Of a DNA stretch of 56,542 bases, positions 13,799 to 54,426 are shown in pieces. The DNA lies in NCBI GenBank assembly GCA_964413845.1, contig CAYPTJ010000003.1, forward strand, positions 1 to 56,542. The letters are read 5' to 3'. Within the stretch, counting starts at the first letter, position 1, and each line of letters begins with the position of its first letter. The translations under genes and the position numbers were made by a program. The notes beneath the pieces were generated by a model. That model was not told the origin of the DNA, searched no databases, and saw only the letters and a program-made list of their open reading frames with translations. Origin of the DNA: an uncultured Candidatus Saccharibacteria bacterium. Its GTDB lineage: Bacteria; Patescibacteriota; WWE3; 9FT-COMBO-53-11.

Positions 13799-14146
13799 AT
13801 GCCAGTCAAACATTATCAGGTTAAAAGGGCACGACGACGGAGACGAATCCGGGGGAAGATCTTTGGAACTGGAAAACGTCCACGCCTTTCCGTTTTCCGC
13901 TCGGGCAAGCACATCTTTGTGCAGCTTATTGATGATGAGAAGGGGAAGACTTTGGTTGCAATTTCGGATTTATCCTTCAAGGAAGGAATCAAGAGCCAAA
14001 AAGCACAGGTGGCTGGGGAAAAGCTGGCTGAGGAAGCATTAAAGTTGAAGATAAGACGAGTTGTCTTTGACCGAGGTGGATACAAGTATCACGGTCGGGT
14101 GAAAGCAGTTGCCCAAGGGGCAAGGAAGGGAGGGTTGGAGTTTTGA
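13799..14146 (+). CDS. rplR: 50S ribosomal protein L18
   Basis: RLSVFRSGKHIFVQLIDD and FDRGGYKYHGRV motifs. Confidence 0.95.
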   Translation: MPVKHYQVKRARRRRRIRGKIFGTGKRPRLSVFRSGKHIFVQLIDDEKGKTLVAISDLSFKEGIKSQKAQVAGEKLAEEALKLKIRRVVFDRGGYKYHGRVKAVAQGARKGGLEF

Positions 14147-14598
14147 TGGCCGAAGGAGTAATGGGGCAAAAACTGCAAGAAAAGGTGCTCATGGTTAATC
14201 GAGTTGCCAAAAAGATTAAGGGAGGTGAGCGGAGGGGTTTTACGGCGTTGGTGGCAGTTGGAGATGGGTGTGGAAAGGTAGGAATTGGTTACGGTCGTGC
14301 GCAAGATCTGCGGGTGGCGATTGAGAAAGGGAGAAGGCAAGCGAAGGTGAAGATGTTTGCTGTCCCAATTTCGGGAACCACCATTCCCCATCGTGTAGAG
14401 GTAAAAGAAGGGGCAGTGAAGATTATTCTTAAGCCTGCTCCCCGCGGCGCAGGATTGATCGCGGGTGGAGTGATCCGAGATCTTCTAGAGCTGGCGGGGT
14501 ATGGGGATGTATCGGCGAAGATGTTAGGAACAAGAAATAGAATGGCGAATGTGAAGGCAACAGTTACTGCTTTAAGGGGGATGAGGAATGAGGCTTAA
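14146..14598 (+). CDS. rpsE: 30S ribosomal protein S5
   Basis: VNRVAKKIKGGERRGFTALVAVGDG motif. Confidence 0.95.
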   Translation: MAEGVMGQKLQEKVLMVNRVAKKIKGGERRGFTALVAVGDGCGKVGIGYGRAQDLRVAIEKGRRQAKVKMFAVPISGTTIPHRVEVKEGAVKIILKPAPRGAGLIAGGVIRDLLELAGYGDVSAKMLGTRNRMANVKATVTALRGMRNEA

Positions 14599-33513: not shown

Positions 33514-33923
33514 GCTCCTTTTTGGTTTCTGTGGTATAATTAAGATTGTGCAGGAAGAAGGGCAACCGCCCCACGTCGCGTAAAGCTATGAGGGGAGGAA
33601 AGTCCTGACTCCGTAAGAGCAAAGGAACGGGGTGCAAGCCCCGACGGGTAACCGCTAGTGGTCCAACCCCGAAAGGGATTGGGCACGGATCCTGAATCAA
33701 TCCTTCGACAGGCTCAGGATTGCCCTGAGCGCAGTCGAACGGGCAACAGGGTTTGAGAGCAACAGAGACGAGCGCTCACCTAAATCCGCCAGTAGGTGGA
33801 GATGGTGAGCGGGTGAAACGGGCAATCCCACCTGGAGCAATCCACGACCACACCCTTTAAGGCTGCTCGCCGATGGTTGATGACGACGATTTGGCCACAT
33901 TGACCAGGGTGCGAAGATGGAGC
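33514..33923 (+). ncRNA. rnpB: RNase P RNA (bacterial type A-like)
   Basis: GAGGAAAGUCC (P4 5' strand) at about 33590-33603, CCCACCUGGAGCAA and GGCUGCU segments. Candidate P1 is GCUCCUUUUU / AAGAUGGAGC with 9 of 10 pairs. A TATAAC -10-like hexamer lies 7 nt upstream. Ends are approximate. Confidence 0.8.
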
Positions 33924-34114
33924 ATCCGCCAACTGGCGGACCCGCCTGAATGCGAGAGCTTTTGGCGGGAGAGAGATGGTTGTCTAAAACAGAATCAGGC
34001 TTATTCTCTTCCTGCGCCAGAAAGTGCCACCGTAAGGTGGCCTTTCTGTTTGAACAGGAGAGAACAAGGTTGCGAGCGGAGCGAGCGCCTTATCCTCTTC
34101 CTGTGCAGAAAAAT

Positions 34115-49974: not shown

Positions 49975-50048
49975 GCCGGCGTAGCTTAGCTAGGTGAGAG
50001 CATCCGTCTCCAAAACGGAAAGCGTGGGTTCGAATCCCGCCGCCGGTG
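49975..50048 (+). tRNA. tRNA-Trp (CCA)
   Basis: Hand-folded. Acceptor GCCGGCG/CGCCGGT. D stem GCTT/GAGC. Anticodon stem TCCGT/ACGGA with loop CUCCAAA. T arm GTGGG-TTCGAAT-CCCGC. Discriminator G. CCA is not encoded. Confidence 0.9.
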
Positions 50049-50101
50049 CTCTTGAGTAAATTAGGCACCCTAAAAATCTGATAGAGTAGGAGGTAAGAGA
50101 G

Positions 50102-51127
50102 ATGGCTACCAAAAGAGTTCTTACTGGTATCCGCCCAACTGGCCCACTGCATCTGGGACATTATGTTGGAGCGCTCAGTCAGTGGATACCTCTTCAGGAC
50201 GACTATGAGTGCTTCTTCCTAATCGCTGACGTGCAAGCCTTAACAACCCACATTAATCAGCCAGCGGTAATTGAAGAGGCGGTTCGAGAGGTGATGCTCG
50301 ACTGGATCGCTGTTGGTTTGGATCCCATCCGGCCCAACGTCCACTTTGTTCTTCAAAGTGGAGTTCCAGAACTCACCGAACTTACTACTTACTTTTCGAT
50401 GTTGGTTCCTTTTTCCGAGATAGAAAGAAACCCTACCATCAAAGAAGAAAGGAAACGTCTTGGTTCTGAACCGACAGTAGGGTTCATGGGTTACCCAGTC
50501 AGCCAAGCAGCGGATATCCTCCTTTTTACCCCCTACCCACCGGGAAAGGAAGATGAGCTGCTTGTGCCGGTAGGGGAGGATCAAGTACCCCATCTTGAGG
50601 GGACTAACCGAATTGCCAGGCGGTTTAATCGCCGTTACGGCAAAGTCTTTCTTGGGTGTACTCCTAAAGTGGGGAAGGTAGGTCGTCTACCAGGGACTGA
50701 TGGCCAAGCAAAGATGAGTAAGTCCTTGAGAAATGTAATCCAACTTAAGGATGTCCCAGAAACGGTACAGCGGCAAGTGATGAGGATGTTCACCGATCCC
50801 AAAAAGGCTCGGCAAGGTGACCCTGGCCATCCAGAAGGATGTCCAGTATACCTCTACCACCAAGCCTTTGGTAACTTGGCAACACTTGATGAGCGTGCAA
50901 AGCGCTGTCGGTTGGGTGAGTTAGGTTGCGTTGAGTGCAAACAGAATCTTGTTGAAGTGCTCAATGCTTTCCTCGATCCCATCAGAAAAAGGCGTGCTGA
51001 AGCAGAGGAGATGCCTTTGGGGAAATATCTCCGTGAAGGCACAGAGTACGCTCGTGAAGTTGGACAAGTCACAATGGCCGCCGTGCGTAAGGCGATGCAC
51101 CTTAACTATCCTTCGATTTTCTCCTAA
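50102..51127 (+). CDS. trpS: tryptophanyl-tRNA synthetase
   Basis: GIRPTGPLHLGHYVG (HIGH) and KMSKS motifs. 341 aa. Confidence 0.9.
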   Translation: MATKRVLTGIRPTGPLHLGHYVGALSQWIPLQDDYECFFLIADVQALTTHINQPAVIEEAVREVMLDWIAVGLDPIRPNVHFVLQSGVPELTELTTYFSMLVPFSEIERNPTIKEERKRLGSEPTVGFMGYPVSQAADILLFTPYPPGKEDELLVPVGEDQVPHLEGTNRIARRFNRRYGKVFLGCTPKVGKVGRLPGTDGQAKMSKSLRNVIQLKDVPETVQRQVMRMFTDPKKARQGDPGHPEGCPVYLYHQAFGNLATLDERAKRCRLGELGCVECKQNLVEVLNAFLDPIRKRRAEAEEMPLGKYLREGTEYAREVGQVTMAAVRKAMHLNYPSIFS

Positions 51128-51144
51128 GAAGAAGGGGGGAGACA

Positions 51145-51855
51145 ATGGGATGCACAATTGTTAACACGGTAGTTGTTCTCGTCGCTGGGGTAATTGGTCT
51201 TTGTCTAAGAGGCCGATTATCCGAGAAGTACGGAGACGCAGTTAAGGAGGCTCTTGGTCTCGCAGCGATACCAATTGGAGTTTCCCTTTATCTAGGAACG
51301 AAAAACCCGTTAATTGTGCTTATCGCAACCACCTTAGGGTTTCTTTGGGGGTGCCTTTGGTGCCTTCAAGGCCGCCTCGATAAGGTGGGTGGCTGGCTCG
51401 AAAAACATACCCGTTTTTTGGAGAGGTTGGTACCCCATCGGAAAGGGGATAGTTTCACCAATGCTTTTGTAACGGCAAGCGTTGTTTCCCTCATTGGCCC
51501 ATTAGCAATAATGGGACCTATTCAGGCAGGGGTGACCGGGGACTGCAACCTCATATACACAAAATGCATCTTTGATTTCTTCGCGACGGTAGTATTTGCC
51601 GCCGGAATGGGAGTGGGAGTGTTGTTTTCTGCATTCTCTGTTCTCCTTTTCCAGGGTGCAATCACGTTTGCATCTTCCTGGGTCGGGCAGATATTAACCG
51701 AGGCGATGATCGTAGAAATGACCGCCGTTGGTGGGGTTTTGATTATGGCGATGGGTATACATGTATCCGGAATCAAGAAGATCGACGTGGGAAACTTCTT
51801 GTTAGCGATTCCCCTTGCCCCAATCATCACCTACCTTTGGGGAGTAGTGTTTTGA
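51145..51855 (+). CDS. DUF554-family membrane protein (YqgA/YdfK-like)
   Basis: Polytopic 236-aa protein whose N-terminal IVNTVVVLVAGVIG pattern is typical of DUF554. Confidence 0.55.
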   Translation: MGCTIVNTVVVLVAGVIGLCLRGRLSEKYGDAVKEALGLAAIPIGVSLYLGTKNPLIVLIATTLGFLWGCLWCLQGRLDKVGGWLEKHTRFLERLVPHRKGDSFTNAFVTASVVSLIGPLAIMGPIQAGVTGDCNLIYTKCIFDFFATVVFAAGMGVGVLFSAFSVLLFQGAITFASSWVGQILTEAMIVEMTAVGGVLIMAMGIHVSGIKKIDVGNFLLAIPLAPIITYLWGVVF

Positions 51856-51884: not shown

Positions 51885-52979
51885 TCAGTCAGTGCGCTCT
51901 TTTTGTATTGCAAATATTCTAAGAAGCAGTTTAACGATATTTTCCAAATCCTTTAGAGCAATACTTTCCCTGGTAGTGTGCGTTTCGCGAGCGCCATAGG
52001 TCAGATTTAGAGTCTTAATTCCACGGTTGTTCAAAATATTAGCATCACTCCCGCTGCAAGTTGGTGAGAACTTTGGTGTAAAACCAAGGGTTTTTATCTC
52101 ATGCTTAACTTTTTTAACAAATTCATCCTCTTTTTTAACCCTAAATCCCTGAGCGGGGTTTAGGATTTTAAAACTTGTTTTTCCTCCATCATCTTCAGAA
52201 GTTTTTCTGAATTCTTCTACTACTTTTTTCATTTCACTCCGCGCTCTTTGATTATTCAAACTTCTAACTTCAGCTTGAATAAAAACTTTACCTGGAACTA
52301 CATTTCTTGATTCTCCTCCCGTAATCTTTCCAATATTCACGATTGTATTTTTGTTAATCCTTCCTTGCTTAAGTTTGGAGATTGCAGAGGCAGCAATTGT
52401 GATTGCGTTAACCCCTTTTTGAGGATCAAGACCAGCATGTACGGATTTTCCTTTAATCTCAATATCGATTGTGTAATAAAAAGGAGCGGCCGATGTTATC
52501 GTCCCAAAGGGACCTGGACGGTCGAAAACGATTCCTCTTTTCGCTCTAAGTTTGGAAAAATCAAGAGCCGAAGCACCTTTGGAACCAAATTCTTCTTGAA
52601 CCGTAAAGATAATTTCCAACGGACAGGTTTTAAGATTGTCTTCCTTCAAAATCTTTAGAAATTCTAGAATAGCGGCAACAACCGCCTTATTATCGGCTCC
52701 GAGGATTGTTTTTCCACCGCTTTTAAATACACCATTCTTGAGAACCGGTTTAACCCCAAAGCAAGGTTCAACTGTATCAAGATGGGTGCAAACTAAAATA
52801 GGCTTCCCCTCACCAGTTGTTCTGGCGATAATATTTTCGACCTTGTCCTGTCCGAAATTGATGGCAAGGGTGCGTAGCTCTTTTTTGACAAATTCTAAAG
52901 CCGTCCCTTCTTTTCCTGAGGGACTTCCGATTTTTGTAAGGTTCAAAAAATTTCTTTTAAGTCTCTTTCTGTCAACCAT
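51885..52979 (-). CDS. M20-family metallopeptidase/amidohydrolase
   Basis: PSGKEGTALEFV...CTHLDTV...GADNKA pattern and a size of 364 aa. Confidence 0.7.
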   Translation of the reverse strand: MVDRKRLKRNFLNLTKIGSPSGKEGTALEFVKKELRTLAINFGQDKVENIIARTTGEGKPILVCTHLDTVEPCFGVKPVLKNGVFKSGGKTILGADNKAVVAAILEFLKILKEDNLKTCPLEIIFTVQEEFGSKGASALDFSKLRAKRGIVFDRPGPFGTITSAAPFYYTIDIEIKGKSVHAGLDPQKGVNAITIAASAISKLKQGRINKNTIVNIGKITGGESRNVVPGKVFIQAEVRSLNNQRARSEMKKVVEEFRKTSEDDGGKTSFKILNPAQGFRVKKEDEFVKKVKHEIKTLGFTPKFSPTCSGSDANILNNRGIKTLNLTYGARETHTTRESIALKDLENIVKLLLRIFAIQKERTD

Positions 52980-53030
52980 AATTCACCATCGTTTTTGAAA
53001 GCTAAACTAGTTCCACTTTTAATTTTAAAG

Positions 53031-53066
53031 AAAACCCCTTGGCCTATCATAGAACCAAGGGGTTTT
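53031..53066. terminator. strong bidirectional terminator spanning the stop of the GNAT-like gene
   Basis: AAAACCCCTTGG - 12 nt - CCAAGGGGTTTT, a perfect 12-bp stem. Confidence 0.8.
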
Positions 53067-53712
53067 GCAATTGACCAACAAAGATAGCCGCATCACCTCT
53101 TCCCGGCTTAAGGCCGATTTTGGCAAAGGTTTCTGTAGCTTTCCTCTCTTCCCCTTCATAGCGAGGTTCAGTAGCCGTCATACATCCCCCGTAGGTTCCG
53201 ACCTCAACGAAGGTTTCAGGGTCAAAACTCTTCATCCCAAGCCTTTGGGCTATTGCTAGGGCAATACTTCTGAAAGGCTCAGGAGGTTTTACAATGCCTC
53301 CAGGATAAAGAACGGCACACCTTCTCAGCAAGCAGATATATATGACAGGGTTCTGGGTTCGGGTTGCGATATATCTGCAGTTGGCATCTGTGATCGCTTG
53401 ATCTAGGATCTTCCCCAATAAACCCTTCTTTTGATGTCTGCTTTCAAAGACAGTCCCACTTAAATAGAGTACTCTTTCTCCCGCGATGCAAAGATGATCA
53501 AAGGAACCGAAACCAACAGCTCCTCCAGAGAATCTCGCCACATAGATGGCATCAACCCCAAGGACATGGTTTTTAATATCGTCAGTCTCAACTGGTGTCC
53601 CAAAACCGTCTCTAGTTACAGGAATGAGGCTTTCTAACAACGTTTGCTGTTCCAACTCACTTAGAGTTTCTCTTGGGTTTAGGATAGCCTCAATAGAGTA
53701 CCTATTTTGCAT
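53047..53712 (-). CDS. GNAT-fold acyltransferase-like protein, unknown substrate
   Basis: RHQKKGLLGKIL (Q/RxxGxG/A-like acyl-CoA loop) followed by ATRTQNPVIY. SD GGAGGAG is present. The gene is preceded by a T-box leader. Confidence 0.6.
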   Translation of the reverse strand: MQNRYSIEAILNPRETLSELEQQTLLESLIPVTRDGFGTPVETDDIKNHVLGVDAIYVARFSGGAVGFGSFDHLCIAGERVLYLSGTVFESRHQKKGLLGKILDQAITDANCRYIATRTQNPVIYICLLRRCAVLYPGGIVKPPEPFRSIALAIAQRLGMKSFDPETFVEVGTYGGCMTATEPRYEGEERKATETFAKIGLKPGRGDAAIFVGQLQNPLVL

Positions 53713-53760: not shown

Positions 53761-54095
53761 AAATAAGAAAACCCCGTACTTATCCTGCCACTCTTAAGTG
53801 ACAAACAAGGACGAGGTTTCCTTCGGACACCCCGTGGTGCCACCCTGTTTTACCTAATCGTTACCGATTAGGCCTTAGGGATACTTGACAAAGCAGTGAT
53901 ACCCCACAGTTTGATAACGGTCTGCTTCCGGGTAGAGCTACTTGCAACACTAACCGCGTTTGCTCTACCAGCTTAGTGTTCCATAACACTGAGAGGGCCC
54001 ATTCTCCCCCTCATAGCTGTTTAGGTGATTATTACATACACCTTACGTGCTGTCAAATGGCTGAGCGTGCCGGTCAGGACCCACTCAATCCTTAT
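53761..54095 (-). promoter_or_regulatory. T-box riboswitch leader, probable Trp (UGG) specifier
   Basis: Minus strand carries AGGGUGGCACCACG, with mutually exclusive antiterminator and terminator folds, Stem III, an F-box CCGUUA, and a Stem I lower helix with GAA-UGG-G. See findings. Confidence 0.8.
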
Positions 54096-54354
54096 AGTCC
54101 ATTGTATAACCTCGGGGCTAAATGGCTTGCACTGAGCCTGTCGAAGTAGTTTATGCTGAGCGAAGTCGAAGTAAGACAAACCTGTCCCGTAGTGAACCTT
54201 GTTCTACTTTAATCCTGTTGAGAGCCGAGGGCTCTCAGCCCTCGGGTGAAAACGGGAGGAAAGCAAAGGTTCTGAGGCCGAAGTCCGAAGAAAGCCGAGA
54301 CCTCTTAGGCCTCGGATATTTACTACTGGGATGAGACAGTATAAAAAAGGTGAA

Positions 54355-54392
54355 GCGCTAGGTCGGGGGTTCAAATCCTCCCCGGGGAGCCA
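54355..54392 (+). other. tRNA-like 3' module (variable loop-T arm-acceptor strand-GCCA) without a detectable 5' half
   Basis: GCGCT-AGGTC-GGGGG-TTCAAAT-CCTCC-CCGGGGA-G-CCA. The T arm matches 15 of 17 positions of the tRNA-Pro T arm. Confidence 0.5.
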
Positions 54393-54398
54393 GCACCT

Positions 54399-54426
54399 AA
54401 AAAGCCCTGTATATTGGGCTTTTTTG
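54399..54426 (+). terminator. rho-independent terminator
   Basis: AAAGCCC-TGTATATT-GGGCTTT followed by TTTT. Confidence 0.75.

Follow-up and report, generated by a model that had tools for sequence, protein, structure and literature searches.

A probable tryptophan T-box with an ultrashort Stem I and an intrinsic terminator precedes a GNAT-fold gene in a candidate division WWE3 bacterium

T-box leader RNAs that control transcription generally need a long Stem I with a platform for the tRNA elbow, since the tRNA has to be captured before the polymerase reaches the terminator (PMC7583486). The canonical class I T-boxes, described by the Rfam family RF00230, include tryptophan-specific members at Bacillus subtilis rtpA-ycbK, the Lactococcus trp operon and Streptococcus suis trpX (PMC9382623, PMC2494555). 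The short-Stem-I T-boxes of actinobacterial ileS genes (class II; 6UFG, 6UFM) have their codon “mounted in an apical loop”, rely on Stem II to compensate for the missing elbow contact and act on translation (PMC7583486). The TBDB database equates a truncated Stem I with this translational class II (PMC7778990). Wels et al. found some 8% of T-boxes upstream of genes whose function is unknown or has no evident link to amino-acid metabolism (PMC2494555). In this study, we analyzed a leader RNA on the minus strand of a 56,542-nucleotide (nt) stretch of contig CAYPTJ010000003.1 (hereafter called the window, meaning this whole stretch of DNA) from an uncultured bacterium. The leader lies upstream of a gene for a GNAT-fold protein of 221 amino acids (aa). 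In the initial annotation of the sequence, the genome appeared to resemble those of the candidate phyla radiation (CPR). In agreement with this, exact matches to proteins of candidate division WWE3 bacterium CG09_land_8_20_14_0_10_47_33 were obtained for nine of ten window proteins; WWE3 is a division that we take to belong to the CPR. The leader is probably a genuine, conserved, Trp-specific T-box attenuator, with a Stem I other than the one first proposed. Its elements, the gene it would control and its predicted ligand are listed below; loci on other contigs carry L numbers.

54028..54056, minus strand: sigma-70-type promoter TTGACA-17-AATAAT, TG-extended, with 11 of 12 consensus matches.
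53970..54018, minus strand: Stem I three-way junction made of the basal helix P1, the specifier hairpin and an inserted hairpin; minimum free energy (MFE) fold, z of -3.7, matched by covariance model R1 (see below).
53999..54001, minus strand: specifier codon UGG (Trp), located in the apical loop AGAAUGGG, with the purine G53998 as the next base.
53975..53990, minus strand: extra hairpin AGUGUU-AUGG-AACACU, placed after the specifier hairpin and before the P1 3' strand, present in the window, L002 and L004 only.
53931..53969, minus strand: Stem II, GGUAGAGC/GCUCUACC, 53969-53962 paired with 53938-53931; from the Rfam alignment and covariation.
53906..53930, minus strand: Stem IIA/B pseudoknot and F-box; IIA is CGG/CCG, IIB is GCAG/CUGU and the F-box is CCGUUA (53920-53915).
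53878..53905, minus strand: variable hairpin GGGGUA...UAUCCC in the linker from the IIA/B pseudoknot to Stem III; from the MFE fold.
53853..53872, minus strand: Stem III, CCUAAUCG-GUAA-CGAUUAGG, with purine flanks (UAAGG before, UAAAACA after); from the fold and covariation.
53833..53846, minus strand: T-box sequence AGGGUGGCACCACG (consensus AGGGUGGNACCGCG), forming the 5' side of the antiterminator and the 7-nt bulge, with maximal posterior probability in the RF00230 alignment.
53807..53846, minus strand: antiterminator (discriminator core) made of A1, the bulge and A2; from the sequence, the Rfam alignment and folding.
53761..53823, minus strand: intrinsic terminator, in which the antiterminator 3' strand CCUCGUCCUU pairs with AAGUACGGGG (53781-53772), followed by UUUUCUUAUUU (53771-53761).
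53047..53712, minus strand: regulated gene for the 221-aa GNAT-fold protein, which has no Trp (PIS12228.1, “hypothetical protein COT70_02045”), with the Shine-Dalgarno (SD) sequence GGGGAGGAG at 53725-53717.
49975-50048, plus strand: tRNA-Trp (CCA anticodon), G73 discriminator, 3' CCA not encoded; predicted T-box ligand.

Like class I T-boxes, the window leader has a T-box sequence, a 7-nt bulge, an A1/A2 antiterminator set against an intrinsic terminator, a Stem II with AGUA, a IIA/B pseudoknot, an F-box and a Stem III, together with a GAA-UGG-purine context and a UGGN bulge matched to the tRNA discriminator. Unlike them, it has no long Stem I, AG bulge or distal loop, and hence no elbow-binding interdigitated double T-loop motif (IDTM); its codon sits in an apical loop and not in an internal one, its host belongs to the CPR, and its target is a GNAT-fold gene instead of an aminoacyl-tRNA synthetase, biosynthesis or transport gene. 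With the actinobacterial ileS T-boxes it shares the apical specifier on a truncated Stem I, the lack of an IDTM, and a Stem II S-turn and IIA/B pseudoknot that are kept, presumably to hold the anticodon. Those T-boxes differ in acting on translation through SD sequestration, in sensing tRNA-Ile and in serving ileS in Actinobacteria, whereas the window combines an intrinsic terminator with tRNA-Trp in WWE3; in the window, L002 and L004, moreover, the basal kink-turn (K-turn) region takes the form of a three-way junction that includes an inserted hairpin. The leader therefore shares with class II the truncated Stem I with an apical specifier, but no SD-sequestering helix was found in it. The combination of a short Stem I with a terminator differs from the described classes; a short-Stem-I, terminator-type Trp T-box may already have been drawn before, for example for the leaders of trpE and trpB-like genes in Dehalococcoides to which PMC2494555 refers. 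In the literature that we searched, T-boxes in CPR/Patescibacteria have not been reported, nor has a GNAT-deacylase pair under T-box control, and a 2024 perspective calls cell-cycle regulation in CPR/Patescibacteria “virtually unknown” (PMC11665869). Given the roughly 8% of T-boxes that precede genes of unknown function or unrelated genes, the unusual GNAT target is not unprecedented.

To identify the leader, the window was searched with RF00230. In E-value mode, the region 54023..53804 on the minus strand matched the full length of the model (positions 1-219) with 45.5 bits, E being 1.1e-8 in an 871-nt region and 7.4e-7 across the whole window. At the Rfam gathering score of 93, no T-box was reported in the window. 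The search that the initial annotation had set as its own refutation test thus returned a significant E-value at less than half the gathering score, the low score being due to Stem I, for which 32 nt were aligned versus 82 in the model. Folding of the 271-nt leader gave a z of -5.2. The T-box sequence, A1, bulge, A2 and inner cap, as well as Stem III and the F-box, were all read on the minus strand where they had first been placed. A1 is AGGG/CCUU (53846-53843 with 53810-53807) and A2 is ACGGGG/CCUCGU (53835-53830 with 53816-53811), capped by UCC-GAA-GGA. The 7-nt bulge is UGGCACC, of which UGGC is complementary to a tRNA 3' end GCCA. The motif GGUGGNACC(A/G)CG is invariant across 12 of 12 related leaders. 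Sequence and folding also confirmed the proposed competing terminator: antiterminator and terminator are mutually exclusive, the strand CCUCGUCCUU being common to both, and a U-run follows the terminator hairpin. Constrained folding of 53880-53758 gave -44.8 kcal/mol for the terminator conformer versus -23.2 kcal/mol for the antiterminator without tRNA, with -31.3 kcal/mol for the terminator hairpin itself; in these models, the energies are arranged as expected of a default-off switch. The RF00230 alignment and the constrained folding agree on a T-box alternating between antiterminator and terminator, and the element is, on sequence grounds, very probably a genuine T-box.

The 5' part of the leader differs most from the initial annotation. 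The promoter at 54056..54028 predicts a transcript start near 54021, 3 nt before Stem I. TTGACA promoters were found at an equivalent distance in L002, L004, L038, L050, L051 and L062, and in every complete leader a promoter precedes Stem I by 15-50 nt. Stem I is ultrashort, carries its codon in the apical loop and has no tRNA-elbow platform. Its P1 basal helix is AGC/GCU (54018-54016 with 53972-53970), and the specifier hairpin GAGGGGG-AGAAUGGG-CCCUCUC (54012-53991) exposes UGG in its loop. A long, IDTM-bearing Stem I (AG bulge, distal loop) was not found, as the P1 strands are only 49 nt apart and the promoter is directly upstream. The description of the leader as a complete, textbook T-box could therefore not be kept, the tRNA-elbow platform of canonical transcriptional T-boxes being missing. 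The extra hairpin is found at the same place in L002 and L004, with a different sequence and length, and is absent from L007 and from eight sister leaders described below. The motif AGUGUU occurs twice in 53945-53990 on the minus strand, once at 53990-53985 and once within UUAGUGUU in the apical part of Stem II, and there is a single AACACU (53980-53975). Either copy of AGUGUU could thus be a partner for the 3' arm of the extra hairpin, so that the inserted hairpin and Stem II might pair with each other in an alternative fold, a possibility confined to the window.

Downstream from Stem I, the leader contains the elements typical of a T-box, namely Stem II with an S-turn, the IIA/B pseudoknot, the F-box and Stem III. 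Stem II carries an S-turn-type AAGUA on its 3' side (53943-53939). Both pseudoknot helices, IIA (53930-53928 with 53920-53918) and IIB (53925-53922 with 53909-53906), are conserved and covary. They replace the pseudoknot first proposed, AACACUAA/UUAGUGUU, which is specific to the window, reuses the extra hairpin and is not conserved. Counterparts of the linker hairpin were seen in sister leaders by eye only, with unrelated sequences.

We then looked for related leaders. RF00230 matched upstream of the orthologous genes in L004 (42.2 bits) and L002 (36.1 bits), with a further, cut match in L006; the leaders of L003 and L007, cut by the contig end, were recognised by eye. The sequence GGGAGAAUGGGCCC is invariant in all GNAT-locus leaders that reach Stem I (window, L002, L004 and L007), and the stem flanking it varies in a compensatory manner (GAGGGGG/CCCUCUC, GAAAGGG/CCCUUUC and CGGG/CCCG). 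A metagenome collection was also scanned with the pattern GGAGAANNNRCC-N{41,71}-CCGGA-N{72,102}-GGTGGNACCRCG, in which the codon positions were left free. The scan returned 57 loci, with TGG in 16 of 56 matches. In six of these TGG matches, GAAUGGA lies in an internal loop of a canonical long Stem I, and the only downstream gene scanned in this group, that of L028, encodes a W/Y-family synthetase. A second group comprises nine distinct loci (L024, L026, L038, L045/L052, L050, L051, L059, L062 and the window's own contig, L055) with a common layout of promoter, AAAGCGUUUGA, short stem, loop AGAAUGGG, returning stem and GAGCU. These sister leaders share the ultrashort Stem I of the window, minus the extra hairpin. 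Ultrashort T-boxes with other codons were not found: the non-TGG matches inspected were either long-Stem-I T-boxes matched in distal Stem I or lacked T-box features, so covariation between loop codon and gene across amino acids was not obtained. Eight sister leaders, with the window and its orthologues excluded, were used to build R1, a covariance model covering the 5' domain (P1, specifier hairpin, Stem II and Stem IIA). This model matched the window over its full length at 53898-54024 on the minus strand (48.2 bits, E of 1.7e-10 in 422 kb), as well as L007 (52.8 bits), L002 (40.6 bits) and L004 (40.0 bits).

Covariation was evaluated in a hand-segmented table of 12 leaders (window, orthologues and sister leaders), since MAFFT and covariance-model alignments mis-registered the three insertion-bearing leaders. 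Every helix is 93-100% canonical. The specifier hairpin has 71 canonical pairs out of 71, with compensatory changes at four of seven positions; the corresponding figures are 82/84 and five of seven for Stem II, 56/60 and five of five for IIB, and, among 11 leaders, 82/82 and eight of eight for Stem III. A1 and A2 are fully canonical (100%) in the 12 leaders. A tool-made alignment of eight sequences (A4), in which the P1 and IIB columns are partly out of register and pairing is therefore understated, gave 88.4% paired cells versus 75.4% in shuffles, and 12 pairs with double-sided changes versus 5.4 expected (0 of 500 shuffles reached either value). When partners were slid by one to three columns as a control, pairing was 31-46%.

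The motif GAA-UGG-G was read on the minus strand at 54004-53998, as first annotated, and the assignment of UGG (Trp) as the specifier is borne out by the invariance of the loop and by the genes that the same loop heads elsewhere, namely a trp operon, TrpD-like genes and a tRNA-Trp gene. These genes link the apical UGG to tryptophan without recourse to the GNAT locus; the GNAT gene itself is connected with the amino acid by context only. The leader of L024 precedes TrpE and five open reading frames (ORFs) sized like TrpG, D, C, F and B (Pfam scan of TrpE only). The discriminator match had also been predicted correctly, since the UGGC bulge fits G73 of the tRNA-Trp at 49975-50048, and the same match between a UGGC bulge and a G73 tRNA-Trp was found in L059. 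Tryptophan specificity of the switch is accordingly regarded as highly probable.

Further observations were made at the sister loci. Divergent TrpD-like Glycos_transf_3 proteins of 443-505 aa are encoded behind a T-box in L026:2352-3686 (minus strand), L051:9379-10710 (plus strand), L038:4997-6481 (minus strand) and L045:4126-5643 (plus strand); all four score far below the TIGR01245 cut-off. The next genes encode a BtpA-family protein (L038) and an inosine-uridine nucleoside hydrolase (L045), without a trp operon, and these loci may represent another Trp-related salvage route. At L059:2671-2993 (minus strand), an ultrashort UGG T-box with a terminator is followed by a tRNA-Trp gene (CCA, G73) and then by a 268-aa ORF without a Pfam or NCBIfam match; this switch appears to control the gene of its own ligand. 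No hairpin with a U-run was seen at L024:13191-13491 (minus strand), where the antiterminator 3' strand (UCCUU) could pair with the SD sequence (GAGGG), and the L024 leader may act on translation.

The structure, its covariation and conservation among orthologues, the codon-gene association and the bulge-discriminator match are consistent with the following mechanism. Transcription would start near 54021, and the nascent leader would form the short Stem I, whose apical loop AGAAUGGG would offer UGG to the CCA anticodon of tRNA-Trp. With no distal platform on Stem I for the tRNA elbow, Stem II would presumably contribute to holding the tRNA. When the tRNA is uncharged, its 3' GCCA would pair with UGGC in the 7-nt bulge and stabilise the weaker antiterminator, allowing read-through into the 221-aa gene. 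With charged tRNA, or with none, the terminator (53823-53761), by far the more stable structure, would form and transcription would be expected to stop.

Other interpretations of the leader were weighed against this one. In the initial annotation, it was a canonical and complete class I T-box with a long Stem I, closed by 54089-54080/53997-53988 (AUUGAGUGGG with CCCUCUCAGU) and holding UGG in an internal specifier loop. The 10-nt complementarity does exist (9 of 10 positions), but it does not build Stem I: its 5' strand precedes the -35 box of the one good promoter and, with a start near 54021, would not be transcribed. No equivalent helix occurs in the orthologous leaders L002 and L004, whose promoters are equally close; RNAfold picks the local hairpin even when given the upstream sequence, and this hairpin covaries perfectly. 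There are no AG bulge or distal loop motifs between 54080 and 54012, and the short Rfam alignment of Stem I points the same way. A long helix with an internal specifier loop is thus scarcely credible, and we replaced it with the ultrashort hairpin in a three-way junction. Nearly as improbable is that the specifier is another frame of AGAAUGGG (AUG for Met, GGG for Gly, AAU for Asn or GAA for Glu) and that another tRNA is sensed. Specifier frames of T-boxes can be ambiguous, TBDB weighing the -1, 0 and +1 frames (PMC7778990). However, the same loop lies 5' of TrpE, TrpD-like and tRNA-Trp genes, long-Stem-I leaders with GAAUGGA precede TrpRS (tryptophanyl-tRNA synthetase) genes, the GAA-NNN-purine layout fits UGG alone, and the bulge base C fits G73 of tRNA-Trp. 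Translational control by SD sequestration, as in the other known short-Stem-I T-boxes, has somewhat more in its favor, as an ultrashort Stem I has so far been tied to this mode (PMC7583486; TBDB class II, PMC7778990) and the sister L024 has no obvious terminator and a 3' strand that could reach its SD sequence. In the window, however, the alternative structure consists of a -31 kcal/mol hairpin and the ensuing UUUUCUUAUUU; it ends 35 nt before GGGGAGGAG and makes no contact with it, and 10 of the 11 other related leaders have a hairpin and U-run terminator, L024 being the exception. We therefore consider translational control improbable and transcription attenuation likely.

Several points speak against a Trp-specific attenuator of this kind. 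The RF00230 score is below half the gathering threshold. The K-turn reported as essential for short-Stem-I T-boxes is not evident in the window, L002 and L004: sister leaders have UGA...GA in this region, whereas in these three the 5' GA forms Watson-Crick pairs with UC and the junction holds a third, inserted hairpin, after which AA or AG precedes the P1 3' strand. The window Stem II has AAA opposite AGUA, versus GAA in the sister leaders. The bulge reads UGGU in L002, L004 and L006, which would need A73 or a G-U wobble with G73; tRNA genes were not found in the available sequence of these loci. No T-box was detected by Rfam, by eye or with model R1 in the 320 nt available 5' of the gene pair in L001, an absence that is uninformative since the contig ends there. 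A terminator-type T-box that binds its tRNA without an elbow platform also contradicts the generalisation in section 6.2 of PMC7583486. In L001:1-100, two direct copies of GAACTTAGTAACCAT(C/T)AAT(C/T)CC, about 65 nt apart, were seen 5' of a 52-aa ORF that precedes the GNAT gene.

The product of the regulated gene gave no match in Pfam (E <= 0.1) or NCBIfam. Its AlphaFold (AF2) model, computed from a seven-sequence alignment, has a predicted local distance difference test (pLDDT) value of 86 and a predicted template modelling (pTM) score of 0.85. Foldseek placed NatD first among PDB structures (E of 2.6e-8), with Naa50, RimI and Ard1 among the neighbours; 501 PDB matches had E <= 1e-3, and all 50 of those listed are GNAT-fold acyltransferases. 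Template modelling (TM) scores to PDB GNATs are low (0.37-0.48) because the last ~80 residues differ, and a profile search against PDB sequences gave weak GNAT matches only (E of 0.008-0.5). PF00583 is matched by 40 of 63 scanned family members (best E of 1.3e-9). The model and its structural matches agree with the GNAT-like fold that had been noted initially. An exhaustive profile search retrieved 796 representatives at 50% identity (E <= 1e-3). Close relatives are few: among 5.8 billion clusters, six share 52-58% identity and one 33%. A scan of reference genomes added four distant relatives (27-35% identity) in Parcubacteria and in the DPANN superphylum (Diapherotrites, Parvarchaeota, Aenigmarchaeota, Nanoarchaeota and Nanohaloarchaeota), none of the four with a T-box core. 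Like GNATs (PF00583; NatD/Naa40, Naa50 and RimI), the protein has a beta-sheet/helix core of ~125 residues, a Q-x-x-G loop and a conserved alpha4 Tyr; unlike solved GNATs, with which it shares 10-18% identity, it has a divergent C-terminal part of ~80 residues and a family-specific RTQNP motif. In the Q94-x-x-G97 loop (beta4-alpha3), at least 90% of 63 sequences keep Q94 and likewise G97; compared with the acyl-CoA pyrophosphate-binding loop Q/R-x-x-G-x-G/A, the last position of Q94-K-K-G97-L-L is L or M and not G/A. R118-T119-Q120-x-P122 and Y125 (beta5-alpha4) are invariant or nearly so. These conserved residues would fit an active acyl-CoA-dependent transferase.

Analysis of the gene environment could give clues regarding the function of this protein. 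The neighbouring features are as follows.

53027..53066, minus strand: hairpin AAAACCCCUUGG...CCAAGGGGUUUU plus CUUU, 3' of the GNAT stop codon; a terminator or attenuator in the GNAT-M20 spacer.
51885..52979, minus strand: PepT-like M20 metallo-hydrolase, 364 aa, zero Trp; TIGR01883 at 303.8 bits versus a cut-off of 274, and synteny.
51145-51855, plus strand: DUF554 membrane protein, 18 nt after trpS.
50102..51127, plus strand: trpS (TrpRS), TIGR00233 at 260 bits, convergent with the M20-GNAT unit.

Among the contigs of the close relatives, an adjacent M20 gene follows GNAT in all that are long enough (L001, L002, L003 and L005); in L008, an ORF that overlaps GNAT is the putative M20 gene. 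The two genes abut in L001 and L008. An M20 gene also adjoins GNAT in a Nanoarchaeota metagenome-assembled genome (L009), and an AstE/AspA-type deacylase does so in L010, L011 and L012. Two domain fusions were found, P0120 (654 aa) joining GNAT to Peptidase_M20 and P0050 (330 aa) joining chorismate mutase (CM_2) to GNAT. The spacer between GNAT and M20 holds covarying hairpins without a U-tract in L002/L005 and L003, and there is no spacer in L001 and L008; because of these abutting genes and U-tract-free hairpins, the pair is read as one functional unit. The gene had been described as monocistronic: a hairpin with a U-tract does follow it, but GNAT and M20 form a conserved unit that is fused in P0120. 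On the plus strand, tRNA-Trp, trpS and the DUF554 gene lie head to tail (49975-51855) in a small “Trp island” whose trpS has no T-box; the DUF554 protein might be considered as a transporter. In L001, GNAT-M20 is followed on its own strand by a gene for a W/Y-family synthetase (PF00579), so that such a synthetase neighbours the pair in two different arrangements. Neither the GNAT (221 aa) nor the M20 protein (364 aa) contains Trp, versus a background of 1.09% (joint P of ~1.7e-3), and the M20 orthologues in L001, L002 and L003 are also Trp-free.

In amino-acid metabolism, acyltransferase/deacylase gene pairs are known from ArgA/ArgE, AstA/AstE and EctA/DoeB, and aminoacylases include ACY1 (M20) and ASPA/ACY3 (AstE/AspA). 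M20 and AstE/AspA are the two families that we take to contain the known aminoacylases. Like the three pairs, the window family sets a GNAT-type N-acyltransferase beside, or fuses it to, an M20 or AstE/AspA hydrolase. Unlike them, it lacks the intermediate-processing enzymes of those pathways, occurs in minimal CPR/DPANN genomes and, in the WWE3 clade, is under tRNA-Trp control. The GNAT product is probably, by its conserved sequence features, an acyl-CoA-dependent N-acyltransferase working with the adjacent M20 hydrolase, and the evidence points to a metabolism of N-acyl or peptide-linked amino acids connected with tryptophan. We tentatively suggest that the pair handles N-acyl or peptide-bound Trp, or aromatics generally, and raises the free Trp supply of a scavenger. 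This guess is weakened by the fact that an acyltransferase consuming free Trp would be counter-productive under Trp starvation, and the absence of Trp from both proteins is shared by 8 of 48 other window genes. Alternatively, the GNAT protein could be a starvation effector, either an N-alpha-acetyltransferase acting on ribosomal or other proteins or a tRNA-acetylating toxin, with the T-box as a mere starvation sensor. Its nearest structures are indeed the protein N-terminal acetyltransferases NatD, Naa50, RimI and Ard1, and T-boxes upstream of functionally unlinked genes have precedents (PMC2494555). This similarity, however, concerns the generic GNAT core only (TM 0.37-0.48), the CPR and DPANN family adjoins or fuses with M20 and AstE/AspA small-molecule deacylases, one member is fused to chorismate mutase, and no antitoxin-like partner is present, which makes such an effector unlikely. 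Equally speculative is the broader proposal that the GNAT-deacylase pair is an unrecognised module for the acquisition or salvage of Trp or aromatics in ultra-small symbionts of the CPR and DPANN groups, operating through N-acyl or peptide-bound intermediates and, in WWE3, wired to tRNA-Trp charging by a platform-free, terminator-type T-box.

Other features of the window were recorded. Upstream of the T-box promoter, the region 54108-54426 on the plus strand is ORF-free and hairpin-rich. Its end resembles a tRNA, with T-arm, acceptor strand and GCCA (GGTCGGGGGTTCAAATCCTCCCCGGGGAGCCA, ~54361-54392), and runs directly into an intrinsic terminator (AAAAAGCCCTGTATATTGGGCTTTTTT, 54399-54426). Rfam matches its T-arm only (transfer-messenger RNA (tmRNA) positions 346-363, 10.6 bits, E of 0.027), and ARAGORN found nothing in it. 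It may be a divergent tmRNA or another tRNA-like RNA gene running away from the T-box promoter. A bacterial class A ribonuclease P RNA was seen at 33550-34019 on the plus strand, as a full-length match with 73.5 bits versus a threshold of 100; it spans 470 nt versus 367 model positions and thus has sizeable insertions. In the ribosomal protein operon, the genes read by eye as S5 (14143-14598) and L15 (14588-15016), both on the plus strand, overlap, with no L30 gene between them; S5-L15 without an intervening L30 is known for CPR bacteria and is in keeping with the WWE3 assignment.

The leaders described here form a covarying natural class of at least 12 members that combine an apical-loop specifier with an intrinsic terminator in most cases, L024 excepted. 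This class offers a direct test case for the kinetic argument on the need for a platform (PMC7583486), and represents a compact (~260 nt) transcriptional tRNA sensor. As the scores of such leaders are less than half the Rfam threshold (36-42 bits for the orthologous leaders versus a gathering score of 93), standard annotation pipelines miss them. The switch also ties a ligand, tRNA-Trp, to the uncharacterised GNAT family, which is consistently paired with deacylases in CPR/DPANN. It thereby provides a lead to how organisms without amino-acid biosynthesis obtain the rarest amino acid.

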